64,000 bases of DNA from an uncultured Clostridia bacterium (GTDB lineage: Bacteria > Bacillota > Clostridia > TANB77 > CAG-508), in NCBI GenBank assembly GCA_944388935.1, contig CALXKK010000001.1:62344-126343 (forward strand). Direction: 5' to 3'. Positions 2,574 through 52,097 of the stretch are shown here, in pieces. A program made the position numbers and the translations under genes. The notes beneath the pieces were generated by a model. That model did no database searches. It saw only the letters and a list, made by a program, of their open reading frames with translations, and was not told the origin of the DNA. How positions within the stretch are numbered: the stretch's first letter is position 1; every line of letters starts with the position of its first letter.

Positions 2574-2609
2574 AGACATTACCTAGAGATTTTTGGTAAT
2601 GTCTTTTTG
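2574..2609 (+). terminator. Rho-independent terminator of smpB
   Basis: AGACATTACC...GGTAATGTCT stem followed by TTTTT. No tmRNA-like sequence follows. Confidence 0.6.
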
Positions 2610-2625
2610 CTTTAACATTGTACAA

Positions 2626-2787: not shown

Positions 2788-2904
2788 AATAATCAACCTC
2801 CCTATTATTTTTATTATTAACTTTTTTATATTTTTTATTCTTTAACCAATTTTGAATTTGTTGCATATACTAAATTAATAATATAAAAAAAGGAGTATAT
2901 TGTT

Positions 2905-3591: not shown

Positions 3592-3595
3592 TTTT

Positions 3596-3630
3596 AAAGC
3601 GAAATCAGTAGGTTTCGCTTTTACTTTTTT
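3596..3630. terminator. Bidirectional terminator between the peroxiredoxin and phosphatase genes
   Basis: AAAGCGAAA-tcagtagg-TTTCGCTTT hairpin flanked by A-run and T-run. Confidence 0.55.
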
Positions 3631-4162
3631 ACAAATCATATTCCCATCCTGGTTGCCAAGATTTTGTTTTTCTCCAATCATTTTTAATAGCTTCTTGCCA
3701 TGATATTTCTTTAGCCAAAACTTCAAAAGCTAATTGTGGTGCTCTATGTGCCACTATTCCAATTGATTTTCCTTGGTAATTTTCTTTTAAATATTCTATA
3801 AAACTTTTAATTCTTTTTTCTACATCTTTTAATGATTCCCCATTTGGAAATGGTTTATCTATATGTTCTTCATAAACTACTAACGACTTATCTTGTCCAT
3901 CTAAATCTCCATAATTACATTCTCTTAATCTGTCATCTTGAATATGCTTAACGTTTGGGAAGGCTAAATTAGCTGAATCTATTGCTCTTACTAAATCCGA
4001 AGTAAATATAACATCAAAATGTGTATCTTTTCTTGTTTCGCCAAGTTTTGTTGCTCTTTCTTTACCTAATTCTGTTAACTCCACCTGTTTCCATCCACTG
4101 CACTTTCCATTTACATTATCATATGTCGTTCCATGTACAAAATATATAACTTTCATTTCCAT
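3629..4162 (-). CDS. Histidine phosphatase (phosphoglycerate-mutase-like) family protein
   Basis: N-terminal VHGTT motif (Val replaces the usual Arg), TSDLVRAIDSA and IVAHRA second-His motifs. Short 177-aa form. Confidence 0.55.
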   Translation of the reverse strand: MEMKVIYFVHGTTYDNVNGKCSGWKQVELTELGKERATKLGETRKDTHFDVIFTSDLVRAIDSANLAFPNVKHIQDDRLRECNYGDLDGQDKSLVVYEEHIDKPFPNGESLKDVEKRIKSFIEYLKENYQGKSIGIVAHRAPQLAFEVLAKEISWQEAIKNDWRKTKSWQPGWEYDL

Positions 4163-4280
4163 TATCTTTCTCCTACTTTTTTCTAATTTTATAATTTATT
4201 TTGCACATATGTCAATTATAAAACCAGAAAAAAGCATCCAAAGTTATTTTTCACCTTGAATGCTTTTGAACAAATATATA

Positions 4281-5210
4281 TTAAGCTTTGTTGCTAGAAC
4301 CAAATACATCTCTTATTTTATGAGCAACTGTTTCTTCTATATAATCTCTTCCTTTACCCATATATTTTCTTGGGTCAAATATACTTGGATCTTGTACAAA
4401 TGTTTCTCTTATTCCTGCTGTCATAGCTAATCTTAAGTCTGTATCTACATTTATCTTTGAAACACCAGATACACTTGCTTCGTGTAATATTTCATCTGGT
4501 ACACCTTTTGCTCCTGGTAAATTTGCTCCATATTTGTTACAGATTTCTACAAATTCTGGTACAACTGTTGAAGCACCATGTAATACTATTGGAGTATTAG
4601 GTATTTTTTCTTTTATTTTTGCTAATATATCAAATCTTAATTTTGCTTCACCTTTAAATTTATATGCTCCATGGCTTGTTCCTATAGCTATTGCTAAAGA
4701 ATCGCATCCTGTTCTTTCTACGAATTCTTTTGCTTCGTCTGGATCTGTATACATTGCATCTTCTGCAGCAACATTAACGTCATCTTCAATTCCTGCTAAT
4801 TTTCCAAGTTCAGCTTCTACAACTACTCCATGAGCATGTGCATAATCAACAACTTCTTTTGTTAATTTTATATTTGTTTCGAAATCATATTTTGAACCAT
4901 CAAACATAACTGATGTATATCCGCTATCTACACATAATTTACAAGTATCAAAATCTGGGCCATGGTCTAAATGTAATACTACTGGAATATCATGTTCTTC
5001 TAAACCAGCTTCTATCATTTTCTTTAAATATGGTATTCTAGCATATTTTATTGCACTAGCTGAAGTTTGTAAAATAACTGGTGAATTTTCTTTTGCTGCA
5101 GCATCCATTATTGCTTGTACAAACTCCATATTATTAATATTAAAAGCTCCTATAGCAAATTTCTCCTTCATAGATTTTTCAAACATGTCCTTTGTTGTTA
5201 CAAATGGCAT
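4281..5210 (-). CDS. fba: Fructose-1,6-bisphosphate aldolase, class II
   Basis: MPFVTTKDMFEKSMKEKFAIGAFNINNMEF...HLDHG...GASTV motifs. GGAAGGTG SD. The ORF-track start is a GTG three codons upstream. Confidence 0.9.
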   Translation of the reverse strand: MPFVTTKDMFEKSMKEKFAIGAFNINNMEFVQAIMDAAAKENSPVILQTSASAIKYARIPYLKKMIEAGLEEHDIPVVLHLDHGPDFDTCKLCVDSGYTSVMFDGSKYDFETNIKLTKEVVDYAHAHGVVVEAELGKLAGIEDDVNVAAEDAMYTDPDEAKEFVERTGCDSLAIAIGTSHGAYKFKGEAKLRFDILAKIKEKIPNTPIVLHGASTVVPEFVEICNKYGANLPGAKGVPDEILHEASVSGVSKINVDTDLRLAMTAGIRETFVQDPSIFDPRKYMGKGRDYIEETVAHKIRDVFGSSNKA

Positions 5211-5248
5211 AAAAATCACCTTCCTTATAAAATTCTATTTTACCCTAT

Positions 5249-5277
5249 TATTTTATTTCTTATTCTTATGAATGTCA
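5249..5277 (-). promoter_or_regulatory. Putative sigma-A promoter of fba (TTGACA-N17-TAAAAT)
   Basis: Reverse strand reads TTGACATTCATAAGAATAAGAAATAAAAT about 35 nt upstream of the start codon. Confidence 0.4.
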
Positions 5278-5360
5278 ATAAAAGTTTGAAATTCATTTTA
5301 CTTGATTATTTTTCATTTTTCAAAAATTCTCTTCAATCATTTTTATTTAATAAACCTAAA

Positions 5361-5384
5361 AATGCTATTCCTAAGAATAGCATT
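5361..5384 (-). terminator. Terminator hairpin immediately after the spo0E-like stop codon
   Basis: Perfect palindrome AATGCTATTC-ctaa-GAATAGCATT followed on the minus strand by a T-rich run. Confidence 0.45.
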
Positions 5385-5385
5385 T

Positions 5386-5541
5386 TTAGTTCTTTTTGCG
5401 TTCTGCCATTTCTTTCATAGCGATATTTATGTATTCGTCTAACTTTTGGCTTTGTTTAAGTATTTTTTCATAGTCTTCGTTATCCAAAATCATTTGCTCA
5501 AGTTTCGCTCTGTGTTTCTTTATTGCAAAAGTAACATCCAT
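5386..5541 (-). CDS. Spo0E-like sporulation regulatory protein (aspartyl-phosphate phosphatase family), 51 aa; not in the ORF track
   Basis: Reverse translation gives MDVTFAIKKHRAKLEQMILDNEDYEKILKQSQKLDEYINIAMKEMAERKKN. The helical I..R..L / SQ-LD-xI pattern matches the Spo0E family. AGGAGGG SD lies 7 nt upstream of the ATG. Confidence 0.6.
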   Translation of the reverse strand: MDVTFAIKKHRAKLEQMILDNEDYEKILKQSQKLDEYINIAMKEMAERKKN

Positions 5542-5577
5542 ATCGCATCCCTCCTATGATAAAATTATAGCACATCT

Positions 5578-5607
5578 TGTCGAGATTTTTTGTCGAAACT
5601 TGTCGAC
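5578..5607 (+). promoter_or_regulatory. Three tandem Spo0A-box-like heptamers (TGTCGAG, TGTCGAA, TGTCGAC) in the spo0E-like promoter region
   Basis: Heptamers sit at 5578-5584, 5591-5597 and 5601-5607 (spaced 13 and 10 bp), 37-66 bp upstream of the spo0E-like start. A TATAAT -10 lies on the minus strand (complement of 5565-5570) with a poor -35. Confidence 0.45.
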
Positions 5608-5633
5608 AAATTAAATTTTTTTTATTTTTTTTG

Positions 5634-7109
5634 TTATTTTTTTTCAAATAAGGATATGATAAAGGTATCACCACTAAATGGATGATAATATTCTTCTTTT
5701 TCTTTTAGAACAGTAGTGCCTTCCATATCATTTATGTAATCATACATATTTGTATCTCCAGCATCTATTACCCAAATCCTTCCAGTATAATTTTCTATTT
5801 CATCTAAATTGTTTACAACTTTCATTTGTGGTGCAAAAGCTCCATATGCTTTTTCTACAGTCCAATTATCTTTATTATAGAAATATTGCTTATTGTTACT
5901 AAAATCTATTGCCACAGAACTACTTGGTCCAATAGTAGTATAAACAAATATATCATTTGGTTGTACTTCTGATTGTATTGCTTCTATTGGCTTTTCGTTA
6001 TCTTCAGAATAAGATTTGTTCCAAAGAGTAACTCCATTCCAAATTGTAAGTACTAATAAACCACCAACAACTACTATTTTTATTATTCGACTTTTTTCGA
6101 CAGATAATACATATGCTAAAGCAAATATAAATAAACCTAGCATTGGTAACATATATCTTGGAATAAATACTGCTCTTTTAAAAGATATTAATAGTGTTAC
6201 AAGTATAACTATTCCGCAAACTGTAAGAGCTATTGTAACTGGTCTTATTTTTTTCTTATCTTCTAAATATAATTTATGTACTCTTAAAATCATATAAATT
6301 AATATGAACAAACCAAAAATAGAAGGTAAACCAGAATTAATACTATCCAAGAAGAAGAATTCTATAATTTGTGTTATTATATCTGGATAATTTACACTAA
6401 TCCAAAATCCATTTGCAACTCTAGTAGATTGCATAATAAATATTACTGTACCTGGTATATAGCATACAATTTGTATAGCTCCATATATAAACCATCTTTT
6501 TAATAGCTCTTTCTTTTCTCTTAAAATATAGAATAATAAAACAATATTTATTATTCCTATAGTAAATAAGGCAAAATAATGTGTATATGCACTACATATG
6601 CTTGATATTGCAAATATTACCCAATCTTTCTTTTTATTATTTTTATATGCTAAATATGCATAAACTGCAGTAATTGTAACAAATAACATTGCTAAACTAT
6701 ACATTCTTATTTGTGAGCCATAATGCATTGTAACTGGCAAAAGTAATAATATTAGGTTAAAATAAAAACTTACTTTATCTCCAAATTCTTTTCTTATTTT
6801 AACAAAAGAAAAGATTGCAAGCAAAACAATTGGAATTACAGAAAATATTCTTAATGCTATAACACTAGTTCCAAAAATTAAAGAATATATTTTTAATAAT
6901 ACATAATATAAAACTGGGTGAACATCATTAATTGTTGATACAAATAAATTAACCAATGGCTGTCTTGCAATTCCTACAGAATATGCTTCATCAAACCATA
7001 AACTGCTATTAAAACATAGCAAAAGAGGGGCTATTGTTATCAAAACAATAAGCCCTATATTTATTTTATTTAAATGCTTTTCTAAAAAGTTTTTCATTTT
7101 CTTCTCCAT
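5634..7109 (-). CDS. Polytopic membrane glycosyltransferase, GT-C fold (GT39/ArnT/PMT_2-like)
   Basis: WFDEAYSV (DE motif in the first extracytoplasmic loop), HPVLYY, ~11 predicted TM helices plus a C-terminal soluble domain. Confidence 0.55.
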   Translation of the reverse strand: MEKKMKNFLEKHLNKINIGLIVLITIAPLLLCFNSSLWFDEAYSVGIARQPLVNLFVSTINDVHPVLYYVLLKIYSLIFGTSVIALRIFSVIPIVLLAIFSFVKIRKEFGDKVSFYFNLILLLLPVTMHYGSQIRMYSLAMLFVTITAVYAYLAYKNNKKKDWVIFAISSICSAYTHYFALFTIGIINIVLLFYILREKKELLKRWFIYGAIQIVCYIPGTVIFIMQSTRVANGFWISVNYPDIITQIIEFFFLDSINSGLPSIFGLFILIYMILRVHKLYLEDKKKIRPVTIALTVCGIVILVTLLISFKRAVFIPRYMLPMLGLFIFALAYVLSVEKSRIIKIVVVGGLLVLTIWNGVTLWNKSYSEDNEKPIEAIQSEVQPNDIFVYTTIGPSSSVAIDFSNNKQYFYNKDNWTVEKAYGAFAPQMKVVNNLDEIENYTGRIWVIDAGDTNMYDYINDMEGTTVLKEKEEYYHPFSGDTFIISLFEKK

Positions 7110-7110
7110 T

Positions 7111-8121
7111 CTACTTTACATTAGTTTCAACTTGTATATTGCTTCCATCACTTATTACAAGTATATTACCGTCTTCATCTGTTCTATATACCTTTGTACC
7201 TACAGCTTGTAACTTATCTATAGTTTCTTGATTTGGTAAATTATATGAATTATCTTTTCCAACTTGTATTATTGCATATGCTGGCATTATTTGATTTACG
7301 AAAGTTTGAGATGATGAAGTTTTAGAACCATGATGTCCAACCTTTAAAACATCTGTTGGTTGCCAGCTTCTAGAAGCTTCTACTTCCTCTTCTGCATCAC
7401 CCATAAATAAGAAACTATTTCCACCATATGTCATTCTAATTACTATAGAAGATAAGTTTAAATTATCTTCTGTATCATTTGTATCTACCGCCATAATTGT
7501 ACAATTTGCATTTGTTAATTTAAATGTATCTCCAACTGCAGGTGTTGTTACTTGTAAACTCTTATTTGCTATGGCATCTAATACATCTTCATATGTTTTT
7601 GTTGTTGTTTGCATCTTTGGCATATAAATTGTACCAATTTCAAAATTATTTATTACATCATCTAGTCCACCAATATGGTCTTCATGTGGATGTGTTCCAA
7701 CCAAATAATCTATTCTAGTAATTCCTTTTTCTTTTAAGAAATTTACAACTGTATTTCCTGCTTCATTAGTTCCAGCATCGATTAGCATCGTTTTATCCTT
7801 GTCAATAACTAGAATACTATCAGCTTGGCCAACATCTAGATAATAAACTCGTAAATCTCCGTCAACCTCTGCTTGTGTCTCAACTGTATTTGTTATATCT
7901 TCGGTTATTACATTTTCAGTAATCACATTATTACCAATGGAATTTTGCAACATGCTATTAAAATCATGTGTTTCCCAATATGATTTTCCTAATATTAATA
8001 AAACAATTAATATTATAAGTGATGCCAGTCTACTAAGCCATTTACGTCTCTTATAGTATTTAGTCTTTTTGCCTTGTTTTACTTTATCCCATAAATTAGG
8101 TTCATTATTCTTTTGTCCCAT
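7111..8121 (-). CDS. ComEC/Rec2-related MBL-fold metallo-hydrolase with N-terminal TM anchor
   Basis: YYLDVGQADSILV, LIDAGT, HPHEDHIGG and KVGHHGSKTSS motifs of the ComEC C-terminal lactamase_B domain. One N-terminal TM helix. Confidence 0.7.
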   Translation of the reverse strand: MGQKNNEPNLWDKVKQGKKTKYYKRRKWLSRLASLIILIVLLILGKSYWETHDFNSMLQNSIGNNVITENVITEDITNTVETQAEVDGDLRVYYLDVGQADSILVIDKDKTMLIDAGTNEAGNTVVNFLKEKGITRIDYLVGTHPHEDHIGGLDDVINNFEIGTIYMPKMQTTTKTYEDVLDAIANKSLQVTTPAVGDTFKLTNANCTIMAVDTNDTEDNLNLSSIVIRMTYGGNSFLFMGDAEEEVEASRSWQPTDVLKVGHHGSKTSSSQTFVNQIMPAYAIIQVGKDNSYNLPNQETIDKLQAVGTKVYRTDEDGNILVISDGSNIQVETNVK

Positions 8122-8142
8122 AATATTTTACCCCACTTATTA

Positions 8143-8457
8143 TTATTTCCATAATTTATTCATTTTGTCTTTTATTCTATTTTCGACTTCTTTTTGCTCT
8201 TCGACATCTATTTCATATTTATTGTTATTAAGCCTTAATATTGACCCCTCTTTTGCATCTTGAGGTAAATCATTTTTGTTTATATTAATCATTTCTCCAG
8301 TATCTCTATTTTCTAATACTGCAATATCTCCTTCAAATCTATCTACTGTAAATTTGTTTTCCATTTCTTCTAATTTATTTGTTAGCTCCCTCTGAAATTG
8401 ATTAACATCAATTTCGTTTTGCCCCCTATTTATATCATTCAATAGGTTTAATTCCAA
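8143..8457 (-). CDS. DUF3006-family small protein; start uncertain (TTG at 8457 with a good SD, or ATG at 8364 giving 73 aa)
   Basis: C-terminal 73 aa MENKFTVDRFEGDIAVLENRDTGEMININKNDLPQDAKEGSILRL match the DUF3006 pattern (DRFEG-AVlE...lP...KEGd). This family is commonly paired with ComEC-like MBL genes. Confidence 0.5.
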   Translation of the reverse strand: MELNLLNDINRGQNEIDVNQFQRELTNKLEEMENKFTVDRFEGDIAVLENRDTGEMININKNDLPQDAKEGSILRLNNNKYEIDVEEQKEVENRIKDKMNKLWK

Positions 8458-8474
8458 ATAAATTTTCCTCCTTT

Positions 8475-10061
<1,587 letters not shown>

Positions 10062-38425: not shown

Positions 38426-41400
38426 CTATCTTTCATCTCTTTCATCACTTTCTTTTCTTATTTCCTCCATAACAGATTTCACCATCTGTCGTTTTTCTAC
38501 ACTTAATGATGACATATCTACTTGTGCATCTTGTGCTCCTATTTGTTTTAATGCTTTCTTCACTTGATAACGTATATGATTTTCCGCTTTTTGCTTTTGC
38601 TCCTCGGTTAACCCCTCTCTTAATGGTGAAGATAAAACATTTCCGATTTTTATTTTTTCATCATCTTGACTATAAATAATAGCCATTCTTGCAGTAGCCA
38701 ATACCCTCGTAGTATTTGGGTCAAGCCCATATTCTTCCGCTACAGTATTCATAAGTCTTTCAGATTTTTTAAGTTGTTCATCATCACCTGTTTCATTAAA
38801 ATATACTGTATTATTGTTTTCAGATTCTCGGTCCATTCTTCTTAATGTTAATAGCACTCTATCTGTCATATTTGTACTATCATACAAAGGAATATCATCT
38901 TGATGAACATATAAGTTTTCTTGCTTAGATTCTACAATTCCATCCCTTTCTGCAATTGTATATTGAATTTTTGCATCAGTATATGGATTTGGTAATCTTC
39001 TTGTAGATTTCACACCTACTGTATCACTTTCTTGATGTATAGTTTTATCCGATTTTATTGCACTCGCAATATCATTATATCCTAAGCCAATTGTTACTTT
39101 GCCTAATACTAATGAATCATATTGTTCTTGCGTAATATCTCCTTTTTTTAACAATTCTTGATATACTCTTTTGTCTTCTTCCATTAAATCTTGTGCTGCT
39201 TTTTTATAGACGCCTAAAACCTCTGCTGCTAAGCCTTTTCTTCCTTTATCAGGATGTTCTGTTTCATATAACCTAAAAATCCTATTGGGTATTTCTATAT
39301 TATCAAAACAGCCTGTGTATTGATTTCTCCAAAACCAACTTTGTGCAACCAATCTTCCTTCTTCATCTTTTACACAAAAAACTCTACCATCAGGGGATAC
39401 AACGCTATGCTCCATACTTGTTTGGCCAGCTCCATGTATTTCTTGGCAACAATCTGTAAGTGTTCCAATTGTTAATGCTAGTGGGTCATCACATCTAAGC
39501 ATTTCGTATGTATACCCATTAGTTTTTCCTTGTATTCTGGGAATACTAGAAAAATCCCTAGTTTCACCTTCATTAAATAGTTTTTGTATAGCTTCAAAAT
39601 CTTCTTGAGAATATCCAGCTATTTTGGCTTGTTCGGCAACTCCCTCATTACCAATATCAATATTAGAATACACTATACTTCTTATATATGCTTGTGCTAC
39701 GTCCCAAGTTAATTTCCTACCAGCATTTGTTCTAACAATATCCTTAAATTGTCTTTGCATTGTAGCAATATCTTTACTATATTCAGGATTTGACAATATT
39801 TCGTCACAATTTTCTACAAAAAATTTAACAAAGTCCGGATTATATTCCATTTTAAAAGAATCAAATATCTGATGAGCTTTAATTGGAGTTAAGATTCTGG
39901 GAAAATCTGCTTCCTCTAATATTCCTCTAACTGTCTTTGTTCTATTCTTGTCACTTTGTGCATTAAATGATAAATTATACTTTCCATCTTTTCCTATTTT
40001 ATATGCTTGTTCTAAAATTGTTTGTAGCTCTTTATTATTTCTATTATAGCTAATTGATTGCATTACTTGTTCATATTCTTCGGCAGATAAATCCTTTGGA
40101 AGTCCTGCAAATAATTCCATTGTCCTATTAAATCCTTCATTATCACCTTGGAATACTCCCATGCTATACGCTGCTTTTAAAAGTGCTGCTTTACCATCGT
40201 TATTACGATTATAAAAATCTATGGTCATTAATTTAGACCATTTTTTCCCATTTGCCAAGAAACTATCAATTTCTTCTTCTGGGAAATTTATCATAACAAC
40301 AAAATTAGGTAAAAATCTTCCACCTGTTGCTTTATACCAACTTTCCAAAGTGCTAACTCTATGGTAACTTACCATTTTATCAATAGTTACTGGATCTCTT
40401 GCTCCTAATTTCATTAATGTATCACTATCAAATTTTCTAAACAATTCGTCATAATTTGGCATAAATGCTAGCCTTATATCTTTTCCTTGTAAAAATTCTT
40501 TCCATTCCGGATATCTCTTTATTAATTCGAAATTTAATTTGATACTAACGTTAGTATCATGTAATTTATTATTATAATACAATGTTTTTAATAATTCTGG
40601 TGCCTCATTATCCAAAAACATCTCCGGACGTCTTTTCTTAAAAAAGTCAGGAATTGTTTCGATAAAAGGAGATTTTCTAGTTAAAATATTCTCCTCTATA
40701 TTTTGCTGTATTGCTCTTTCTTTATCTTGCTTACTTTGACCTTCCACAAAAATTCCAGCGTTAACACCTTCCAAAAATTCTCCGTACTTTTCTGCAAAAT
40801 ATATTATCTCTTGCTCTGTAAGTTTTTCCCACATTGGTCTTACTTCTCTTTGTCTTTGACCATATCTTAGTGGTTTGCATTTTGTATTTCCAAATCCTAC
40901 ACCAATATCTTTTGACAATAATATCTCCCTTAATTGTGGGTTCTGCCTTACATCTTCAAAAGTTAAATCTCCTGAATAAAACTTATTTCTTAATTTTTCA
41001 TCAACCTCTTCTGGAAGAAATAAGTCTGGATGCTTTTCTTTAAAACTTGATGGTAATTCTTCAAAATATACCATTCCCTTATCTTTTATTTCTCCATATA
41101 TAGCATCTTCAATTTTTTCTCTAATACTTTCAAGTGTAAAATCTCTTGAAATGGACAATGATATACTATCTAAGCATTTTCCATAGTCAGCACAAATCCT
41201 TAAGAACTCCTCTTGACCTATTTTTTCTATAACATATTTAGCCATATTTACCTTTTTTCCTTGTAATATTTGTATAAGTTCTGGATTTTGTCTGATATCC
41301 TCAGCACTCATATGTCCTCTATAAAATTTATTTTTTATTGAAACATTAACACCATCTATAAATATATCAGGATGCTCATCTCTAAAACTTCCTGTTATAA

Positions 41401-41773
41401 AATCATAATCAGCGAAAACTCCTGTTTCTATACCTTGCCCTTTTTCTCTTGCATGAAGCAGAATTTCATACATTCTATTTTTAAAATCATCATAGCTTAA
41501 TTCTCCAGAATTAATATCTTTTGAATTTTCTTCATTGCCTGCATATGTATTTGAATCAGAAATAGCAAACACTGTAAGATATATATCATTCCCCCATAAT
41601 GTATGAGAAAACATCCCATTAGTTTCTTCATCCAACCTAATTATATTATCTATTCCATATTTTGTTATAAATCTTCTTTTACTCTCCGAATGTGGTCCCA
41701 TACTGATAGAATCAATAGGAATTTTTTCTATTTCCAGTAATTCTTTAATTCGGTGTAAATCTAATACTTCCAT
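38426..41773 (-). CDS. Large (1115 aa) repeat-containing intracellular protein of unknown function
   Basis: No signal peptide or TM segment. Three ~45-aa internal repeats (xHPD[IL]F...NKFY.G.[LM][ST].ED[IV]RQNP.L..IL). Central Cys/His-rich block LRCDDPLALTIGTLTDCCQEIHGAG...RVFCVKDEEGR. Acidic coiled-coil tail. AAGGAG SD. Confidence 0.5.
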   Translation of the reverse strand: MEVLDLHRIKELLEIEKIPIDSISMGPHSESKRRFITKYGIDNIIRLDEETNGMFSHTLWGNDIYLTVFAISDSNTYAGNEENSKDINSGELSYDDFKNRMYEILLHAREKGQGIETGVFADYDFITGSFRDEHPDIFIDGVNVSIKNKFYRGHMSAEDIRQNPELIQILQGKKVNMAKYVIEKIGQEEFLRICADYGKCLDSISLSISRDFTLESIREKIEDAIYGEIKDKGMVYFEELPSSFKEKHPDLFLPEEVDEKLRNKFYSGDLTFEDVRQNPQLREILLSKDIGVGFGNTKCKPLRYGQRQREVRPMWEKLTEQEIIYFAEKYGEFLEGVNAGIFVEGQSKQDKERAIQQNIEENILTRKSPFIETIPDFFKKRRPEMFLDNEAPELLKTLYYNNKLHDTNVSIKLNFELIKRYPEWKEFLQGKDIRLAFMPNYDELFRKFDSDTLMKLGARDPVTIDKMVSYHRVSTLESWYKATGGRFLPNFVVMINFPEEEIDSFLANGKKWSKLMTIDFYNRNNDGKAALLKAAYSMGVFQGDNEGFNRTMELFAGLPKDLSAEEYEQVMQSISYNRNNKELQTILEQAYKIGKDGKYNLSFNAQSDKNRTKTVRGILEEADFPRILTPIKAHQIFDSFKMEYNPDFVKFFVENCDEILSNPEYSKDIATMQRQFKDIVRTNAGRKLTWDVAQAYIRSIVYSNIDIGNEGVAEQAKIAGYSQEDFEAIQKLFNEGETRDFSSIPRIQGKTNGYTYEMLRCDDPLALTIGTLTDCCQEIHGAGQTSMEHSVVSPDGRVFCVKDEEGRLVAQSWFWRNQYTGCFDNIEIPNRIFRLYETEHPDKGRKGLAAEVLGVYKKAAQDLMEEDKRVYQELLKKGDITQEQYDSLVLGKVTIGLGYNDIASAIKSDKTIHQESDTVGVKSTRRLPNPYTDAKIQYTIAERDGIVESKQENLYVHQDDIPLYDSTNMTDRVLLTLRRMDRESENNNTVYFNETGDDEQLKKSERLMNTVAEEYGLDPNTTRVLATARMAIIYSQDDEKIKIGNVLSSPLREGLTEEQKQKAENHIRYQVKKALKQIGAQDAQVDMSSLSVEKRQMVKSVMEEIRKESDERDER

Positions 41774-41830
41774 ACACTACTCCTTCTTGTGAATTTTAGA
41801 GGCTGTTGGAAACTCTAATTTAGTTCCTTC

Positions 41831-42811
41831 TTATAACAAATTTGGATATAGCATTTTCTTTTTTCTTAAAAGCAAATCTATATCTATATTTACAACATCT
41901 TTTATTAACGGACTGCTATTTACAGAAATTGTATCTGTTTTTACTTCTCTTAAAAATTTTGATGCATTTTGTTTGTCTTCTGTGAATATGCTACTGCTAT
42001 ATCCTGATGTATTATAGTTTATTTGTGCTATAGCTTCGTCTATATCCTCTACTTCTATAAAATCCTCATCATCTTCTAAAGGTAGTTTTAAACCACTTTT
42101 TACATATACATCTATATTTCTATTTTCTTTTAATATCTTTTCTATAAACTCTAAATGAGTTATATCTTCTATATACAAATCAAATTTATTGTAGCCTTTA
42201 ACAATTACCTCTATATTTGAGATTCTTTTTATCTTGTTTTGAAAGTCCCTATTTCCAACTGCTATTACTTTGTTTATACTTATATTGTTAGAAAGTAATT
42301 CTTCTAAATTGCTTGTATAAATTATTTGTACCAAGTTTTTATCAACTTTATATGCTTCTAAAACTCTTTGAACCAATATTAATATCAATTCATTCGTAGC
42401 TTTCATATAATCTGACTCACTTGCTATTATTAATGCATTATGAGTTAATATTGCTTTTAAAACTAGTTCTAATAAGCAATATGTATTTCCATCATATACT
42501 AAGCAAACTGTTCCTAGATTATCTGTTTGCTCGCCTTCTATGTAATTATTTTCGTTTTTATGCATATAAATAACTTTTCTATATGAATCTTCTATATCTG
42601 CCAATTTATCTTTTAGGATATTTATAATTTCGAAATCTAAAGCAAAACCATTATTATTTTTTACATCTATCTCGTTTGCTTTTTTTATACTTTCTGCATC
42701 TTCTTGTATTAAGTCAAAAATGCTGCTTACAATCTTCTTTGCATCAACATTCATATCCATATTAGTGTAAGACATAGTAGCATTTCCCAATATTTCTCTA
42801 ATATTATCCAT
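41831..42811 (-). CDS. Degenerate gamma-glutamyl-phosphate-reductase (ProA)-like / ALDH-fold protein, probably non-catalytic
   Basis: GTVCLVYDGNTYCLLELVLKAILTHNALII and SSIFTEDKQNASKFLREVKTDTISVNSSP resemble ProA segments, but the catalytic-Cys region is absent. Start moved to the ATG at 42811 (AGAGGTG SD). The track start is GTG. Confidence 0.4.
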   Translation of the reverse strand: MDNIREILGNATMSYTNMDMNVDAKKIVSSIFDLIQEDAESIKKANEIDVKNNNGFALDFEIINILKDKLADIEDSYRKVIYMHKNENNYIEGEQTDNLGTVCLVYDGNTYCLLELVLKAILTHNALIIASESDYMKATNELILILVQRVLEAYKVDKNLVQIIYTSNLEELLSNNISINKVIAVGNRDFQNKIKRISNIEVIVKGYNKFDLYIEDITHLEFIEKILKENRNIDVYVKSGLKLPLEDDEDFIEVEDIDEAIAQINYNTSGYSSSIFTEDKQNASKFLREVKTDTISVNSSPLIKDVVNIDIDLLLRKKKMLYPNLL

Positions 42812-42857: not shown

Positions 42858-42932
42858 CTATGCATATAGCCCACTCTAACGAAATTAAAAATTTCTAGAG
42901 TGGCTTAAAAGGTTCGGATTTTATGTTAATCT

Positions 42933-43892
42933 TTAAAAGTCTCTATCAAAACCTTCATCATTAATTTCTTGAGAAACCTTCTTGCCCCTAGAAAAAATGC
43001 CTCTTAAACTTGATTGAAGTCGTGTTAAATTTCCAGTACTTCTTCCAAACGCAATTTTTTGTACTTCTCCTCCTCCAAAACCGCTAGGAGAATTTGCTGT
43101 TGCTCTTACACTTCTAGTTTTACCTTCATCTAAAAATCTTGACTTCTCTTGAACCATATCTATAAACTCTTCAAAAGTATAGACCTTAGAAGCATCCAAC
43201 CTAGATTCTTGCATCCATTTTTGTACTCTAGCTTTATTCTCCGGTGATGTAAAAATGCCAAATAACTGCTCGGGATTTCTTTTTAGGTTTACTGAGCCCA
43301 TTGCGTCCATTATTTTAAGCTTTTCATCTTGCTTACCTTTTGGTAGAAGAGCAAAAACACATCCGCAAGGCAATGAACGTTCATATGCAGTTAAATCTGT
43401 ATAGAATGCTACTGTTCTATTCATAGATCTCACTGTTGTAGCCGAAATTTCTCCCTTAGGATTTGTAGATTTTACAAATCCATTATACCTATCTGCAGAA
43501 GAAGAAATATTTCCACTTCTAATAATTTGCTCCGCATAATAAATTGGAGTACCATGAAATCTTAAATCCAATTTATCTGAAATAACAGCATTAAGTCTTG
43601 CTGAAAATGTTCTAAACTGATAAATTCTATAATTCATATCTTCAGCATTATTAGGTCTAATAAATTTAGCAGTAAGTTTTACTTCTTCGATATTATATTT
43701 CCATTTTTCAACTTCCATATATGCTTCCATATACTCTACAGATCTTCTACCATACCTTCTTCTAGTTACATTTAAATCTTGCATAGCATCTGCTAAGCTT
43801 TTATTATATCTATTAAATTTAGAATTTAGGATTTCTCTATCCTTCTCATATAATTTTTGTGGATCTGTTTCTCTCCTTATTCCATTCTTCAT
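42933..43892 (-). CDS. Hypothetical protein (~320 aa); N-terminus of the ORF-track model is REP-derived
   Basis: The track ORF begins MLDNINIIFELLRSVPKVQSS, which is the in-frame translation of REP copy D. The likely true start is ATG 43892 (MKNGIRRETD) or 43910. No family recognised. Weak R/S-T-N/E-Q pattern only. Confidence 0.4.
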   Translation of the reverse strand: MKNGIRRETDPQKLYEKDREILNSKFNRYNKSLADAMQDLNVTRRRYGRRSVEYMEAYMEVEKWKYNIEEVKLTAKFIRPNNAEDMNYRIYQFRTFSARLNAVISDKLDLRFHGTPIYYAEQIIRSGNISSSADRYNGFVKSTNPKGEISATTVRSMNRTVAFYTDLTAYERSLPCGCVFALLPKGKQDEKLKIMDAMGSVNLKRNPEQLFGIFTSPENKARVQKWMQESRLDASKVYTFEEFIDMVQEKSRFLDEGKTRSVRATANSPSGFGGGEVQKIAFGRSTGNLTRLQSSLRGIFSRGKKVSQEINDEGFDRDF

Positions 43893-43917
43893 TTTATCTT
43901 TACACCTCATCTGTTTT

Positions 43918-43953
43918 GAACTTTGAACTTTGGGGACGGACCTTAAAAGTTCA
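43918..43953 (+). repeat. REP-like repeat, copy D (extended form TTGAACTTTGAACTTTGGGGACGGACCTTAAAAGTTCAAATATTATGTT)
   Basis: Near-identical over ~50 nt to copy E. Confidence 0.6.
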
Positions 43954-43989
43954 AATATTATGTTAATATTATCTAACATCTATTTTTAT

Positions 43990-44289
43990 CTACTTTAATC
44001 CGTTCTCATTCCAATGTTCCTTAAGTTCTTCTTTTTCATCATCTGTCGCAATATAGCTATAATAAATTAATGCTAATAAATCCTTGGCTGTTTCAGAAAT
44101 ATTTTGTTCACTTAAATCCTTATTAAAATCTAATTTTACTATGATAGTAGCTTTACTTGCCAAATCTTTTAATTTTAATATAAAATTTTCAGGAATTTTC
44201 ATAGTAATTTCTGGATCTAAATATTCTAAAATACATAATACTTCTTGGGCAGCATTATAAATTTCCGTTTGTTCCATCTTTAGCTTCAC
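43990..44289 (-). CDS. Hypothetical small protein (99 aa)
   Basis: ORF with SD. Acidic, helical. No motif recognised. Confidence 0.4.
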   Translation of the reverse strand: MKLKMEQTEIYNAAQEVLCILEYLDPEITMKIPENFILKLKDLASKATIIVKLDFNKDLSEQNISETAKDLLALIYYSYIATDDEKEELKEHWNENGLK

Positions 44290-44312: not shown

Positions 44313-45365
44313 TTATTTCTTTTCCATATTTTTTGTTTCTAAAAGTAATTTATCAAAATCTGATGTTATTTTTTGATGTTTGTTAAATTCGTTATATTCC
44401 TTTTCTGCCTTTTCCTCAGCCATTCTTCTAGAAATTTTTCCATTATCCTTTAATATATCATATTTTCTAAATTCCAAGAATTCATTAACACTTTTTGCAA
44501 ATTCCTCCATTGTGAATGTGTTTTCTCTTTCTACTAAATCTTCTATATAATCAAAATAACCAGATATCGCTCTTTCTAGTCTTTTTATTTGTTTTTCTTC
44601 TAAATAGTTTTTTGCTATCATTACATCTGATTTTAAAATTCTTCCATCTGGTGAGTTCTTCCATGTTGTTAATCCCATATTTTCTTTAGTATGATCTGCT
44701 TTTTGATATATGATTTCTGCTGCTGTATTTCCTGTTATTGCATAATGAAATTTATTTTGTATCATAGCATAAAATTTCTTTGTAATCTCTGAATCTTTAT
44801 CATAATCAATACTGCATTCTGCAAATATATCTGTTATCTGTTGCCAAATTCTTCGTTCGCTTGTTCTAATTGAACGAATTCTTTCTAAAAGTTCTTTAAA
44901 ATAATCTTTTCCAAATTTAGGTCCATTTTTTAATAATTCATCATTTAACACAAAACCTTTTTTTATGTATTCTTTTAATGTATTAGTTGCCCAAATTCTA
45001 AAGTCAGTAGCTTCTTTTGAATTAACTCTATAACCCACTGCAATAATAGCATCTAAACTATAAAAAGTTAATTCTCTTGAAACACTTCTATTTCCTTCTT
45101 TTTGAACTGTTCGAATTTTTCGAATAGTTCGATTTTCCTCTAATTCATGAGTTTCAAAAATCTCTTTTAAATGATAATTTATAGTATTTACTTCAACATT
45201 AAATAATTTTGACATCGATTTTTGAGTTAACCAAAAATCTTCATTGTCGTATAATACTTCTACAGATATACTTTCATTGTTTTTACTTTGATATATAATT
45301 AAATCTCTTAAATATTCTAATTTGCTCACCATTTCACACTCCTTTTTTTGTGTTTTGTCATTCAA
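44313..45365 (-). CDS. RhuM-family (virulence protein RhuM-like) protein
   Basis: FWLTQKSMSKLFNV...IRKIRTVQKEGNRSVSRELTFYSLDAIIAVGYRVNSKEATDFRIWATNTLKEYIKKGFVLNDELLK is a close match to the RhuM-family core. Confidence 0.75.
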   Translation of the reverse strand: MNDKTQKKECEMVSKLEYLRDLIIYQSKNNESISVEVLYDNEDFWLTQKSMSKLFNVEVNTINYHLKEIFETHELEENRTIRKIRTVQKEGNRSVSRELTFYSLDAIIAVGYRVNSKEATDFRIWATNTLKEYIKKGFVLNDELLKNGPKFGKDYFKELLERIRSIRTSERRIWQQITDIFAECSIDYDKDSEITKKFYAMIQNKFHYAITGNTAAEIIYQKADHTKENMGLTTWKNSPDGRILKSDVMIAKNYLEEKQIKRLERAISGYFDYIEDLVERENTFTMEEFAKSVNEFLEFRKYDILKDNGKISRRMAEEKAEKEYNEFNKHQKITSDFDKLLLETKNMEKK

Positions 45366-45375
45366 ATTTTCCCTC

Positions 45376-46416
45376 CTATTTTTTTATTAAATCTTTTGAA
45401 TAATAATACATATCAACACATTGCATATTTCCATCCCATAATTCTTCATTATAATTATCTATAAAGAAATTTTTTATTGTCTTTTCATATTTATCAAATC
45501 CTTGTTTAACATAGAATGGTATGTTATTTTCTGTTGTTCCTACAATCATATTTTTATATCTTGGCTTATAGTTATCTGCCAAATATTTTATCATTTTTTT
45601 GCCATATCCTTTGCCTCTGTAGTTTTCTTTAGTTGCTATGTTTTTTAACTCTACAGTATCATTATCAACCTTTGTTACCACAGAAACGCAAACAGGTTCA
45701 TCTTTATATGTTAATACAAACAAGTCCCCATCAGCTAAGTACTTTCTAACTATCTCTTCGCTTGGATCTGCCTCAAGAAGTAACTCTAAATATTGCTCCT
45801 TATTTTCTCTTTCTTTTCTTATATTAATAGAAGGGTTCACAGGTAAGAACTCAAAACCTTCTGGTAATTTTGGTGGTTGGAAATCCTCACCTAAATATCT
45901 ACCTCTCTCGGAAAAGATGCAACCACAATACTTTTGAATATACAAGCCTAATTCTCTGGCTTTTGCTTGTCCAACTTTAAATCCAACTCTAAAATCTCTA
46001 TACAAAAAGTCTAAACCATATTTTTTCGCAATCACTTCACCTAATTTTTTTATAACGTCATGTTTTTGATATGGACTTACTAAAAGTGTTGTAGTAATTG
46101 TATCAAATCCATGCTCCTTCGCATACTTTGCTGTTTGCTCCAAACGAACTGGATAACAATAATCTTGGCATCTTGTTTCCAAAGAATCTACTACATTTTT
46201 GCAAAACTTATCTAAGCCATAATCATCTTCGAAAATGGCTTCCACATTTATGCTCTTAGTATATTCTTTTAAGCAATCTCTTCTTGCCTTATACTCTGTA
46301 TATGGATGAATATTAGGGTTAAACCAATAAACTGTTGGCTCTATTCCTTCATCTCTTAGTGAATCTATGCAATATACACTACAAGGTGCACAGCACGTAT
46401 GCATTAATAATTTCAT
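45376..46416 (-). CDS. Fusion protein: epoxyqueuosine reductase QueH (DUF208) N-terminus plus GNAT acetyltransferase C-terminus
   Basis: MKLLMHTCCAPCSVYC is the hallmark QueH Cys cluster, with further Cys (CQDYC, CGC). The C-terminus ...ELKNIATKENYRGKGYGKKMI is a GNAT acetyl-CoA-binding motif. GGAGGAG SD lies 4 nt upstream of the ATG at 46416. The track ORF's first 39 aa are REP-derived. Confidence 0.65.
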   Translation of the reverse strand: MKLLMHTCCAPCSVYCIDSLRDEGIEPTVYWFNPNIHPYTEYKARRDCLKEYTKSINVEAIFEDDYGLDKFCKNVVDSLETRCQDYCYPVRLEQTAKYAKEHGFDTITTTLLVSPYQKHDVIKKLGEVIAKKYGLDFLYRDFRVGFKVGQAKARELGLYIQKYCGCIFSERGRYLGEDFQPPKLPEGFEFLPVNPSINIRKERENKEQYLELLLEADPSEEIVRKYLADGDLFVLTYKDEPVCVSVVTKVDNDTVELKNIATKENYRGKGYGKKMIKYLADNYKPRYKNMIVGTTENNIPFYVKQGFDKYEKTIKNFFIDNYNEELWDGNMQCVDMYYYSKDLIKK

Positions 46417-46429
46417 TTTTCTCCTCCTT

Positions 46430-46465
46430 GAACTTTGAACTTTAGGGACGGACCTTAAAAGTTCA
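46430..46465 (+). repeat. REP-like repeat, copy E (extended form), 3' flank of the RAYT gene
   Basis: GAACTTTGAACTTTAGGGACGGACCTTAAAAGTTCA followed by a partial second copy (GTGAACTTTTAAA). Confidence 0.6.
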
Positions 46466-46587
46466 AATATTATGTGAACTTTTAAATCAGTACCATTCCA
46501 ATCATTCCTATTTACCAATATTATTCCTTGCATGAATTCAGGTTATATCAGTAATTCATATACCTGCTCTTGACTTGTTCATCAACA

Positions 46588-47355
46588 TTATTCGTGTATC
46601 AATCTATGTATTTTTAATCTATTAACACCTATAATCTCTGCTATTTCCTTCTGTGTGAATCTGTATTTTTTATTCATAATTATAGATATTTCCTTTAAAT
46701 ATTTATTATCATATTTTAAAACGCTAATATTAATAATATTCTTTTTTCGTAAGAATTCATCTAGCACTTGTAATTTCAAATTATTTTTATCTTTTAAGTC
46801 TTCGTCATCCATAAAATTATAGTCAGTTGAATCTTTTATCAATATTGTATTTAAATCAATATTATATGTACTCAAAATTTTTAACACTTTATTTTTGTTT
46901 ATCAAATATTCTTTATTCTTAAATTCCTTATAACTTGAGAATTTGTATTCTGATTGATTGTTGCATATTTTCGCTTTTACCGGATTATTATGAATATAAT
47001 GTATACAATTTATCAAATATTTCCTAGATATAATTTCCTCAGACTTAAATCTATCTCTAAACACATATCCACATCTATCGTGATTTTTATTATAGTAGAT
47101 GGCATAACTTGTATTAACCTTTTTCATTAATTTAGAAACCAAATTTATATCTTGAGAATATACTAAAAAATGAGCATGATTATTCATAATACAGTATGTA
47201 ACTATGTATACATCAAAACTCTTTAGTTTTTCCTTTATAATTTTTAAATATACTTCGACATCTTTTTCTTTATTGAATATATATTCTCTATTTATCCCTT
47301 GTATCATAATGTGTATAAATTTAGAATTTATTTCTTTTCTTGCTCTTCGTGGCAC
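46588..47355 (-). mobile_element. REP-associated tyrosine transposase (RAYT; IS200/IS605-like Y1 HUH transposase, COG1943-type) with C-terminal HTH extension
   Basis: MPRRARKEINSKFIHIMIQGINREYIF N-terminus, HUH motif NHAHFLV, catalytic-Tyr helix IHYIHNNPVKA, C-terminal HTH FTQKEIAEIIGVNRLKIHRL. Flanked by inverted REP copies E and F. Confidence 0.7.
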
Positions 47356-50302: not shown

Positions 50303-51187
50303 TTAAACCCTAATCCACTCTTCTACCCATTCATCAGGTATCTTTAAATTTCCTTTTCCACAACCCATGTCTATATTAGGTTTATTTTTTCCGTGGTAAT
50401 CACTTCCACCACTTTTATAATATTTTCTTTCATTACATAAATTTACAAGATATTGAATCTGCTCTTCGAAAAATGTACTATGCATACATTCAATTCCATC
50501 AATATCGTATTTATCTAAGATATCATCTATTAATTGATACTTATCTTTTGCCCATTTATAGATAAATAAATGAGGTAAAAATACTAATCCTCCACACTCC
50601 TTGATAATCTTAACAGCTTCTTCTGTGCTAGGATAATCAGGCGTTTTATCTATATATAATGGATAATTTTGGTCTCCACAATATTTTTTAGAGAAAGCAT
50701 CAAATTCAGCCCAAAAATCTGCTGGAACCTTGGCCTGATTTTCTGGATGTTTTTTTATTTCGTTATAAATAGCTACACTTCCCCAACCATTTTTTGCATC
50801 CCAGTCGATTTTTTCTTTTGGATCCATTACAAGCCCCATTTGTACAGCCTTTTCATATTGAATGTTAAAATATTTTGTCTGTAACTTTTCTCTAGATTTA
50901 TCTTTATAATATTCAACTGTCCATTGTTTCATTTTCTTTGGGTCAAATTGATATCCTAATACCTCAATCAAATTTTTTCCATAACTACATTTTATCTCTA
51001 TTCCCGGAATTATTTTCCCTTTAAAATATTTATGTACATCTATTTTTTCTAGTTCTTCATATCCATTACAATTATCATGATCTGTAATAGAAATATAATT
51101 TAAATTTTTTTCTTGGGCCTTTTTTAATAATTCTATTATAGAATCTGACCCATCTGAATTTGTAGAATGCATATGTAAATCAATCAT
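50303..51187 (-). CDS. PHP-domain phosphoesterase (histidinol-phosphatase-like)
   Basis: MIDLHMHSTNSDGS and ISITDHD metal-binding His motifs of the PHP superfamily. Confidence 0.7.
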   Translation of the reverse strand: MIDLHMHSTNSDGSDSIIELLKKAQEKNLNYISITDHDNCNGYEELEKIDVHKYFKGKIIPGIEIKCSYGKNLIEVLGYQFDPKKMKQWTVEYYKDKSREKLQTKYFNIQYEKAVQMGLVMDPKEKIDWDAKNGWGSVAIYNEIKKHPENQAKVPADFWAEFDAFSKKYCGDQNYPLYIDKTPDYPSTEEAVKIIKECGGLVFLPHLFIYKWAKDKYQLIDDILDKYDIDGIECMHSTFFEEQIQYLVNLCNERKYYKSGGSDYHGKNKPNIDMGCGKGNLKIPDEWVEEWIRV

Positions 51188-52097
51188 TTCTTTCCTCTCC
51201 CACTATTGTATTTACTTTCACTTTTCTATCAGTAGTATTATCTTTATTTTCTAATTCATATAATGTATTTAATTCCTCAACATAGGGCATTAATGTAGGC
51301 GCAGATTCCGAAAAAACTGAATGTATCATTTCATACTGCATAGGAAATTTTCGCATAAAATCTCTTTTAAATGTTCTTCTGCCATATATAACAGCTTCGC
51401 TTGGACTTTTAAACTCTTGCCCTTCTGTAGTATAAAAAGCATTAGGTCTATTTTCTCCTCTTTTATATACAGTTGCATGGTCAAATAATCCTTGCTCTTC
51501 GAATTGCTTCAAAGTTATTATAAAATTATCATAAGAAGCATCATGTACACTTTTAGGAACCCATCTTGGTTCAGTATCACTTACTAATTGCATAGCATAC
51601 CTTAAAAAGGTAGAAGTATAACTTTCCAGTTTTGGAACAGCCATTAATTCTAAATCTATTTCGTAACCTGCTTCTTTATATTCTTTTGCCATTTTTACGA
51701 AACCTGATGTTGCTCTCATGGTCCCTTCATATATAATACTTAACTTATTATCTCTACAATAATCTCTAATTTCTTGACTTGCTCTATCTGCATCTGGTAA
51801 TAAGGCTAAGTGAATGTTTTCTCTATCCTGTTTATCTGCTACTTCAAAATTTGGATGCATTGATCTAACAACATCATAATCCGTAATTACTGCATTATAA
51901 TTTAATTGTTCATTTACAACTGGAGTCAATTTAGATTTTCCAGCTCCTGATTGTCCTGCTACAAAAACTAATCTTGGTTTTTTTTCTGGTTTCTTGCCTG
52001 TTGTAAAAAATAAATTAACTGAATGATAATATTGTTGATATTCTTCTTCTGTAAGTTTATATTTTGCTTGTAATACTTCTAATTCATCTTGTTCCAT
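51180..52097 (-). CDS. Zeta-toxin family kinase (UDP-GlcNAc kinase-type toxin)
   Basis: Walker A GQSGAGKS, SMHPNFEV (cf. QQHPNFDE), MAVPKLESYTSTFLRY (cf. MAVPKINSYLGTIERY), GLFDHATVYKRGE (cf. GLFSDIRLYNREG). Collinear with streptococcal zeta/PezT. Confidence 0.8.
   Translation of the reverse strand: MEQDELEVLQAKYKLTEEEYQQYYHSVNLFFTTGKKPEKKPRLVFVAGQSGAGKSKLTPVVNEQLNYNAVITDYDVVRSMHPNFEVADKQDRENIHLALLPDADRASQEIRDYCRDNKLSIIYEGTMRATSGFVKMAKEYKEAGYEIDLELMAVPKLESYTSTFLRYAMQLVSDTEPRWVPKSVHDASYDNFIITLKQFEEQGLFDHATVYKRGENRPNAFYTTEGQEFKSPSEAVIYGRRTFKRDFMRKFPMQYEMIHSVFSESAPTLMPYVEELNTLYELENKDNTTDRKVKVNTIVGEERND

Follow-up and report, generated by a model that had tools for sequence, protein, structure and literature searches.

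Among the closest known systems to the protein described here are members of the GNAT superfamily, such as Naa40/NatD (4u9w), Gcn5 (1ygh), RimI (5isv) and PA3270 (1yre). In GNAT enzymes β3, β4 and β5 are the catalytic strands, and the loop that joins β4 to α3 (motif A, Q/R-x-x-G-x-G/A) binds the CoA pyrophosphate. The GNAT-type toxins TacT and AtaT acetylate tRNA; together with ItaT they are canonical GNAT domains of ~170-180 aa, each encoded beside a small cognate antitoxin gene. Polymorphic toxins join an N-terminal secretion or trafficking domain to a variable C-terminal toxin domain and have an adjacent immunity gene. Papain-like enzymes carry the catalytic Cys at a helix N-terminus, facing a His and an Asp/Asn on a beta-sheet. 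In the arginyl-tRNA-protein transferase Ate1, which has a GNAT fold, a Cys-ligated metal site with two vicinal cysteines lies by the active-site cleft (PMC9351520).

Here we analysed a 1115-aa protein (hereafter the big protein) and its neighbour, encoded in a 64,000-nucleotide stretch of DNA from an uncultured Clostridia bacterium (the window). We tentatively read the big protein as a divergent transferase of the GNAT type that is mounted on a helical scaffold and forms a two-protein unit with a ProA-derived pseudoenzyme, and we give this reading a probability of roughly 0.45. The locus shows a new helical repeat of ~115 aa, a cryptic core with a predicted GNAT fold and a distinctive invariant signature, and the ProA-derived partner. 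The features are as follows.

41831..42811, minus strand: gene of the ProA-derived pseudoenzyme, 326 aa when read from the ATG at 42811 (a GTG at 42823 opens the maximal ORF)
41777..41830, minus strand: in-frame remnant of a lost ProA-like C-terminal tail, EGTKLEFPTASKIHKKE* (translation compared with '...AEGTGKNKFEFPTAKAILEKNK...' of P0374)
41780..41785, minus strand: ribosome-binding site AAGGAG, 6 nt before the ATG of the big gene, read straight from the sequence
38426..41773, minus strand: coding sequence of the big protein, stop codon included (ORF list and translation)
41147..41404, minus strand: helical repeat copy 1, residues 124-209 (family HMM E = 5.9e-23; z = 23.7 against copy 2; all-helical in the model)
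40739..41068, minus strand: helical repeat copy 2, residues 236-345 (family HMM E = 5.2e-37; z = 13.4 against copy 3)
40418..40663, minus strand: helical repeat copy 3, residues 371-452, the most divergent (family HMM E = 2.4e-20; z = 7.6 against copy 1)
39542..40417, minus strand: all-helical middle region, residues 453-744
38939..39541, minus strand: predicted GNAT-fold domain, residues 745-945
39293..39499, minus strand: signature block, residues 759-827 (column counts over 280 members), overlapping the central block of the sequence-only reading
38429..38896, minus strand: C-terminal alpha/beta unit, residues 960-1115, α-α-β-β-β-α-β-α (secondary structure of the model)

The big protein comprises four parts: helical repeats, a helical middle, the GNAT-fold domain and the C-terminal unit. 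Its ORF starts with ATG and recurs in a second, independent assembly, where the encoded protein is identical and the upstream neighbour is the same. As the sequence-only reading had stated, it is 1115 aa long and has neither a signal peptide nor a transmembrane segment (maximal 19-residue Kyte-Doolittle mean 1.16); its N-terminus is acidic. Compared with longer relatives it lacks 480 N-terminal aa, and a search of the window for these returned only cross-matches to the internal repeats, which led us to reject a split gene. No Rfam family was matched around the operon.

An exhaustive profile search retrieved 2980 cluster representatives at E <= 1e-3, 344 of them at E <= 1e-30. That is, the big protein belongs to a large family from uncultured gut Clostridia that has neither name nor annotation, and nearly 3000 clusters of very large unannotated proteins, frequent in the gut metagenomes of humans and animals, gain an anatomy. 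Members are 1100-1900 aa long with an N-terminal part of varying length, and tandem copies of the gene occur at one locus (L017). When the protein, its relatives and the trimmed core were scanned against Pfam, NCBIfam, PHROGs and PADLOC, only sub-threshold noise emerged (e.g. SHOCT and FumaraseC_C), and PDB sequence searches, whether from the single sequence or from profiles, gave no match, in agreement with the earlier statement that no known family could be assigned. A PcfJ-like domain was considered and rejected, as Pfam gave no such match and a literature search yielded only papers on pCFJ plasmids. The genomic contexts of distant short homologues were uninformative.

Three repeats of ~45 aa had been proposed for the N-terminal half. 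The repeats themselves are real: pairwise local alignment of the three segments against 300 shuffles gave z-scores of 7.6-23.7, and the family HMM recovered all three copies. The unit proved to be longer, ~110-135 aa (about 115); the 45-aa motif forms its conserved core, and a further conserved stretch, (G)xEEFLxxCxxYGxxL, comes after it. Longer relatives (~1640 aa) carry five copies versus three here. In the full-length AlphaFold2 model (49 sequences, pLDDT 85.8), helical repeat or scaffold makes up about two thirds of the protein.

The fold of the core was taken from this model and from an independent, domain-only AlphaFold2 model (15 sequences; pLDDT 74, >80 over the alpha/beta part). Its elements run β1 (754-758), α1 (765-772), α2 (784-792), β2 (796-802), β3 (808-817), β4 (820-823), α3 (844-876), β5 (892-896), α4 (903-908) and β6 (937-942), which is the GNAT order β1-α1-α2-β2-β3-β4-α3-β5-α4-β6, and β4 and β5 splay apart. 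Foldseek supported a GNAT fold with probabilities up to 0.99. As modelled, the Cys/His-rich core is a GNAT acyltransferase fold and not that of a cysteine protease. Sequence evidence speaks against the assignment: Acetyltransf_* models of the GNAT clan in Pfam had zero matches in 15 diverse members even at E <= 10, and neither NCBIfam nor the PDB profile search matched a GNAT model to the big protein. Motif A is absent in its canonical form: the query has an inexact DKGRKGLA, and this segment is not conserved across the family; distant members and the P0118 clade have a shorter, different one. The domain differs from known GNAT proteins in further respects. It forms part of a protein of 1100-1900 aa, β4 and α3 are separated by an additional helix (830-839 in the full-length model), α3 itself is very long at 33 residues, and an invariant CCQ / H-S / QSWxWRN / CFDNIE signature is unique to it.

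This signature, in full LRxDDP...GxxTxCCQ...MxHS...AQSWxWRN..CFDNIE, overlaps the YEMLRCDDP...AQSWFWRN block (residues 756-817) that had been singled out as a Cys/His-rich functional centre. Column counts over 280 members bear out that view, since nowhere is the family more conserved than in this block, which is probably its functional core. C776, D824, E827 and G770 are invariant (280/280), and C775 (276/280), Q777 (276/280), H789 (275/280), C822 (278/280) and W815 (279/280) nearly so; a Cys occupies position 786 in 106 of the 280 members. Residues that are invariant or at least 98% conserved concentrate at 759-827 and 894-898, running past the end of β4 to 827, and conserved residues are kept in relatives at 24-31% identity as well as in the Microcystis phage protein described below. 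The breadth of the family together with this strongly conserved core argues for purifying selection on a working site. A literature search found the motif strings in no paper.

On the predicted fold, Cys775-Cys776-Gln777 follow α1, His789-Ser790 lie on α2, Gln-Ser-Trp-x-Trp-Arg-Asn on β3, Cys822-Phe-Asp824-Asn-Ile-Glu827 on and just after β4, and Thr-x-Gly-x-Gly on β5. Judging from this order of elements, the conserved residues would cluster in space, and the near-invariant set would occupy the acceptor-site and catalytic-base positions of GNAT enzymes. Glu827, just after β4, falls at what we take to be the position of the catalytic Glu of Gcn5-type GNATs, a correspondence mapped by secondary structure alone.

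The second member of the proposed unit is the ProA-like gene, which in the window lies upstream of the big gene, not downstream as first described, at a distance of 57 nt. A close homologue of its product bears the NCBI name of ProA, gamma-glutamyl phosphate reductase, an enzyme of the proline pathway. The earlier judgement that this protein is non-catalytic was strengthened: matches to Pfam Aldedh and NCBIfam proA were far under cut-off (65.1 bits versus 317.45 for TIGR00407), and the protein aligns with ProA residues 24-237 and 322-374, while ~85 ProA residues (238-321), presumably those that hold the catalytic Cys, are replaced by 30. The partner is an ALDH-fold pseudoenzyme of 326-431 aa; the independent assembly also calls it as 326 aa. 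Its relatives have an extra coiled-coil tail of ~100 aa, which is absent from the window's protein, and the in-frame remnant of such a tail lies in the interval that separates the ProA-like stop codon from the big gene. A search of the space between the genes revealed no site resembling a terminator.

Of 19 genome loci, 18 have the ProA-like gene directly next to the big gene, and the remaining locus stops at a contig edge. Adjacency holds for all complete loci of the closer clades and for two distant ones, namely P0103, with a partner 41% identical, and P0118, where the partner is on the upstream side (phmmer E = 3e-12); no ProA-like gene was adjacent in the P0094 clade. The usual position is downstream of the big gene, with the upstream arrangement seen in the window and in the most distant clade, and at other loci with called genes the spacing ranges from an overlap of 11 nt up to a gap of 19 nt. 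Many big-protein and ProA-like matches also had in common a longest contig of equal size. Adjacency across loci and clades supports the functional link between the two genes that co-transcription had suggested.

If the big protein is a divergent transferase, its GNAT-fold domain would be the functional heart, drawing on a thioester or ester donor and moving its acyl or aminoacyl group onto an amine of a large substrate held by the helical repeats. Asp824 or Glu827 may act as general base, and the Cys/His cluster may either shape the cleft as a metal site or carry the acyl group covalently. The adjacent ProA-derived protein, having lost its central segment, would most likely be a binding or regulatory subunit, possibly in a physical complex with the big protein. 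This opens a hypothetical protein to testing, through named residues and a named partner, and supplies material for two new domain families. A bolder version, which we hold to be improbable, posits a new class of GNAT-fold transferases whose chemistry needs the invariant vicinal Cys pair and an obligatory ProA-derived subunit; the pair would serve as covalent acyl-thioester carrier or as redox or metal switch, and the subunit would present the substrate or bind a gamma-glutamyl or nucleotide ligand. If true, a new system for modifying proteins or peptides would be widespread among uncultured gut Clostridia and have cyanophage relatives.

The best-surviving alternative to the transferase reading, albeit a rather doubtful one, is a non-catalytic GNAT-like module whose Cys/His set binds Zn or Fe-S, with the protein acting beside its ProA pseudoenzyme as scaffold or sensor for a ligand or partner. 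The unconserved acetyl-CoA loop, the lack of GNAT HMM matches, the large share of helical scaffold and a partner that is itself a pseudoenzyme all fit this proposal. So does the cysteine pattern: C775, C776 and C822 with C786 or H789 resemble a metal site, for which the C4 Zn site with vicinal cysteines by the GNAT cleft of Ate1 offers a precedent (PMC9351520). The likeness to Ate1 is drawn by analogy, from conserved sequence positions, and the Pfam models ATE_N and ATE_C of Ate1/Bpt were not matched. However, a purely structural metal site leaves the invariant D824 and E827, Q811-S-W-x-W-R-N and T894-x-G-x-G, placed on the strands β3, β4 and β5 that are catalytic in GNAT enzymes, unexplained, and a metal site is compatible with catalysis, as in Ate1. 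Should the Cys pair be catalytic or metal-binding, the known chemistry of the GNAT fold would be extended; should it be neither, the family would be a clear case of an enzyme-derived scaffold with a second pseudoenzyme.

The size and repeats of the big protein had also suggested an effector or toxin, that is, a GNAT-type toxin on a large repeat scaffold, neutralised by the ProA-like protein and carried as a module in variable islands. The surroundings are suggestive: in the window the neighbours include RhuM, an IS200-like transposase and a zeta toxin, typical for variable islands, and related loci carry Bro-N, YhcG, a KAP NTPase and Mob_Pre with a serine recombinase. The diversity of the family, its variable N-terminal length, tandem copies and both gene orders would also suit a conflict system, as would a distant relative encoded by Microcystis phages. 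This is ORF68L of phage MaMV-DC (YP_009217752.1), an unannotated hypothetical protein of 697 aa with neither the Clostridial repeats nor a Pfam or PHROG match, which shares T-x-CCQ...AGExC...AQSWTW...CFDNxE with the family (tblastn E = 3e-6 across query residues 702-827). Yet the other flanking genes are ordinary chromosomal ones (PolA, RuvB, UvrA, CysK) that vary among genomes, and no match was obtained in PADLOC, in plasmids or in IMG/VR. A mobile-element origin was dropped on the same plasmid and IMG/VR searches, the cyanophage match being the only one. Unlike polymorphic toxins, the big protein has no secretion or delivery domain, and it is the C-terminal, enzyme-like part that is conserved while the N-terminal part varies. 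Unlike TacT, AtaT and ItaT, it reaches 1115-1900 aa, matches no GNAT HMM or PADLOC model, and is paired with a pseudoenzyme of 326-431 aa rather than a small antitoxin. We find no support for the toxin proposal and judge it unlikely.

By far the least probable is a Cys-His hydrolase or transamidase (papain-like protease, transglutaminase or deamidase) with DCC / IHG as active site, as the sequence-only reading had envisaged: near-invariant Cys775/776, His789 and Asp/Asn/Glu residues would by themselves permit a catalytic thiol, but fold searches with both models returned only GNAT proteins, with neither a papain-like nor a transglutaminase fold among the results, the Cys pair sits in a loop past the C-terminal end of α1, and no peptidase or transglutaminase HMM matched.

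Beyond the GNAT-fold domain, the C-terminal unit may possibly be a second, degenerate GNAT-like lobe, an impression that comes from secondary structure only. Alignment of the two units with hhalign was not significant (probability 0.5%), and the tandem or two-lobed GNATs FemA (1lrz), MbtK/EryM (9nnq), the Eis-like proteins (2hv2/2i00/3n7z) and VipF (7wx5) gave long alignments of low probability (0.35-0.54) and high rmsd. The tail, previously described as an acidic coiled coil, is highly charged and net neutral over its last 65 residues (D+E 21.5%, K+R 21.5%), and in the model it belongs to the alpha/beta unit, which ends in a long helix.

The window has a G+C content of 27.9%, and in it a long series of chromosomal genes lies on the minus strand, among them those for PolA, RuvB, CysK, GtrII glycosyltransferases and an ABC-F protein. 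Around the gene for the 1115-aa protein (the big gene) lie the following features:

38426-41773, minus strand: big-protein ORF, 1115 codons, ATG start
41777-41830, minus strand: tail remnant EGTKLEFPTASKIHKKE*, in frame, after the stop of the ProA-like gene
41831-42811, minus strand: ProA-like gene, 326 aa, upstream of the big gene
42933-43979, minus strand: 348-aa ORF, immediate upstream neighbour of the ProA-like gene
43990-44289, minus strand: 99-aa ORF of unknown function
44313-45365, 46588-47355, 51180-52097 and 45376-46533, all minus strand: mobile or conflict-type neighbours (RhuM family protein, IS200-like Y1 transposase, zeta toxin, QueH-GNAT fusion protein)

An AAGGAG site is placed 6 nt upstream of the big-gene ATG. 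The protein is cytoplasmic, as the sequence-only reading had it, since its maximum 19-residue hydropathy mean is only 1.16 and its N-terminus is acidic.

No model in Pfam, NCBIfam, PHROG or PADLOC matched the big protein, nor did a PDB sequence search return a match. Two structure models were made, one of residues 600-1000 (15-sequence alignment; pLDDT 74 as a whole and above 80 in the alpha/beta part) and one of the whole protein (49 sequences; pLDDT 85.8, pTM 0.63). With the latter, too, Foldseek returned essentially GNAT proteins only, with probabilities up to 0.99 and weak E-values (0.04-0.2). The modelled order of the core is the GNAT topology (β1 754-758, α1 765-772, α2 784-792, β2 796-802, β3 808-817, β4 820-823, an extra helix 830-839, a very long α3 844-876, β5 892-896, α4 903-908, β6 937-942). 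Its β1 to β3 are the 'central block' (residues 756-817) that had suggested a Cys-His site of protease-, transglutaminase- or deamidase-like kind. Fold searches returned nothing similar to a papain-like, transglutaminase or deamidase fold. Residues 960-1115 form a further modelled α-α-β-β-β-α-β-α unit, perhaps another lobe of GNAT type that has degenerated; hhalign found no relation between it and the first GNAT unit.

Among 280 aligned family members, G770, C776, D824, E827 and G896 are invariant, followed by W815 (279), C822 and G898 (278), S812 and R816 (277), C775, Q777, Q811 and W813 (276), H789 (275) and T894 (273). Position 786, Ser in the big protein, is Cys in 106 of the 280. Relatives with 24-31% identity keep the signature, as does a Microcystis phage protein. 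On the GNAT secondary structure, these residues would map to three places, the α1-α2 region, β3/β4 and β5. GNAT enzymes have the acceptor side of their cleft at the α1-α2 region, and E827, just after β4, would by secondary structure occupy the general-base position of Gcn5-type enzymes. The family does not conserve the classical CoA pyrophosphate loop (Q/R-x-x-G-x-G/A), and no GNAT HMM gave a match even at E <= 10; therefore we consider the modelled fold established, but transferase chemistry a proposal.

The N-terminal part carries three copies of the motif HP(D/E)(I/L)F...NKFYxG...RQNPxL, and in local alignment these segments outscore 300 shuffles with z = 23.7, 13.4 and 7.6. The repeats noticed earlier are thus real, but their unit is not 45 aa long: a family-iterated HMM places the copies at residues 124-209, 236-345 and 371-452 (E from 1e-20 to 1e-37), so that the unit spans ~110-135 aa and includes, beyond that motif, another conserved element, (G)xEEFLxxCxxYGxxL. 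The family HMM counts five copies in most full-length relatives.

Linkage with the ProA-like gene is the strongest contextual signal. Of 19 genome loci, 18 have a ProA-like gene directly after the big gene, and the 19th ends at a contig edge. One also follows in P0103, a 38% identical homologue (41% identity between partners, 11-nt gene overlap). The P0118 clade (33-36% identity) has the reverse arrangement, with a ProA-like gene of 291 aa placed 19 nt upstream, and in the P0094 clade none is adjacent. The partner scores 65 bits against the NCBIfam proA cut-off of 317, and aligns to solved ProA over residues 24-237 and 322-374, with 30 residues in place of the intervening 85, a stretch that in ProA holds the catalytic Cys. 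Its description as non-catalytic is borne out. Most close homologues of the partner have 431 aa and carry a coiled-coil tail, which is absent in the window. The EGTKLEFPTASKIHKKE remnant matches the relatives' EGTGKNKFEFPTAKAILEKNK and ends 3 nt before the big-gene start, from which we infer a deletion that joined the two genes here. The remnant also suggests a rearrangement of the usual big-then-ProA order; the upstream placement was confirmed by an independent assembly. Tandem duplication could explain the swap: L017, another genome locus, has two tandem big-gene copies (1174-9348), each split into two ORFs, and then one ProA-like gene. Since no terminator-like site was found in the 57-nt gap, the pair is likely co-transcribed.

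As the best reading we tentatively propose (confidence about 0.45) a divergent GNAT-type transferase that has a helical repeat scaffold and acts together with a ProA-derived pseudoenzyme. Its catalytic base would be Asp824 or Glu827, and its Cys/His cluster would serve as metal site or as acyl carrier. By analogy, Ate1, with a C4 zinc site that includes vicinal cysteines beside its GNAT cleft (PMC9351520), offers a precedent for the metal site. That the protein is instead a non-catalytic, metal-binding scaffold or sensor seems rather unlikely. We doubt still more that it belongs to a toxin or conflict module, for which only island-like neighbours (RhuM, IS200-like transposase, zeta toxin, Bro-N, YhcG, Mob/recombinase) and family diversity speak. 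A Cys-His hydrolase is highly improbable, and the modelled fold contradicts it.

A word-indexed search yielded 134 relatives, none named, most of them ~1630-1640 aa long, with ~500 additional N-terminal residues. In an exhaustive HMMER search with a profile of the 401-residue core, 2980 cluster representatives (clustered at 50% identity) passed E <= 1e-3 and 344 passed E <= 1e-30. Genome matches came in every case from uncultured gut Clostridia, e.g. Clostridium sp. CAG:571; plasmid and IMG/VR searches gave no relative. A distant relative is the 697-aa hypothetical protein ORF68L of Microcystis phage MaMV-DC, a cyanophage (L031 2690-4783), which carries the signature (TxCCQ...AQSWTW...CFDNxE), and the cryptic GNAT-like domain therefore also occurs in phages, outside Clostridia. 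The superfamily is an established one. Of the family itself, of its signature and repeat, and of the pairing with a ProA pseudoenzyme, the family libraries (including Pfam, NCBIfam, PHROG and PADLOC) and literature text searched contain no description. A large block of gut-bacterial protein sequence without annotation is thereby given a concrete, testable anatomy.

The big protein begins with MEVLDL, then HRIKELLE; in long forms the start is MEKLDL, and NDLHQVKEMLEK occurs near residue 482. The 1115-aa form therefore looks like an in-frame loss of ~480 N-terminal residues with the original start retained. Because short forms in other lineages (P0028 with MEKLKKEMLEKR, P0068, P0069) start at the same border, this module has apparently been lost more than once; elsewhere in the window no gene encoding it was found. 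In long homologues (e.g. P0002, residues 60-120) it contains a short stretch, 'ANxDFS...NFxGCxIxNFxF', that recalls pentapeptide repeats. At L022, the locus of P0094, an apparent duplicate of the 5' end lies ~700 nt before the gene: a 124-aa ORF (8956-9330) nearly identical to the P0094 N-terminus.

The 348-aa ORF matched nothing in Pfam, NCBIfam, PHROGs or PADLOC; its patch 'RFHGTPIYYAEQIIRSGNISSSADR' loosely recalls R-S-E ADP-ribosyltransferase motifs. In the 109-nt gap between it and the ProA-like gene, an inverted repeat, CCACTCTA-N17-TAGAGTGG (~42860-42895, minus strand), not called by the terminator scan, may bound the transcript of the two-gene unit on its upstream side. Weak homologues of the 99-aa ORF lie near the big/ProA-like module in two other genomes (L004 9917-10375 and L015 8643-9077; E = 4e-8 and 4e-4), in L015 immediately upstream of the big gene. 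The IS200-like Y1 transposase of the window has 255 aa, above the usual length.
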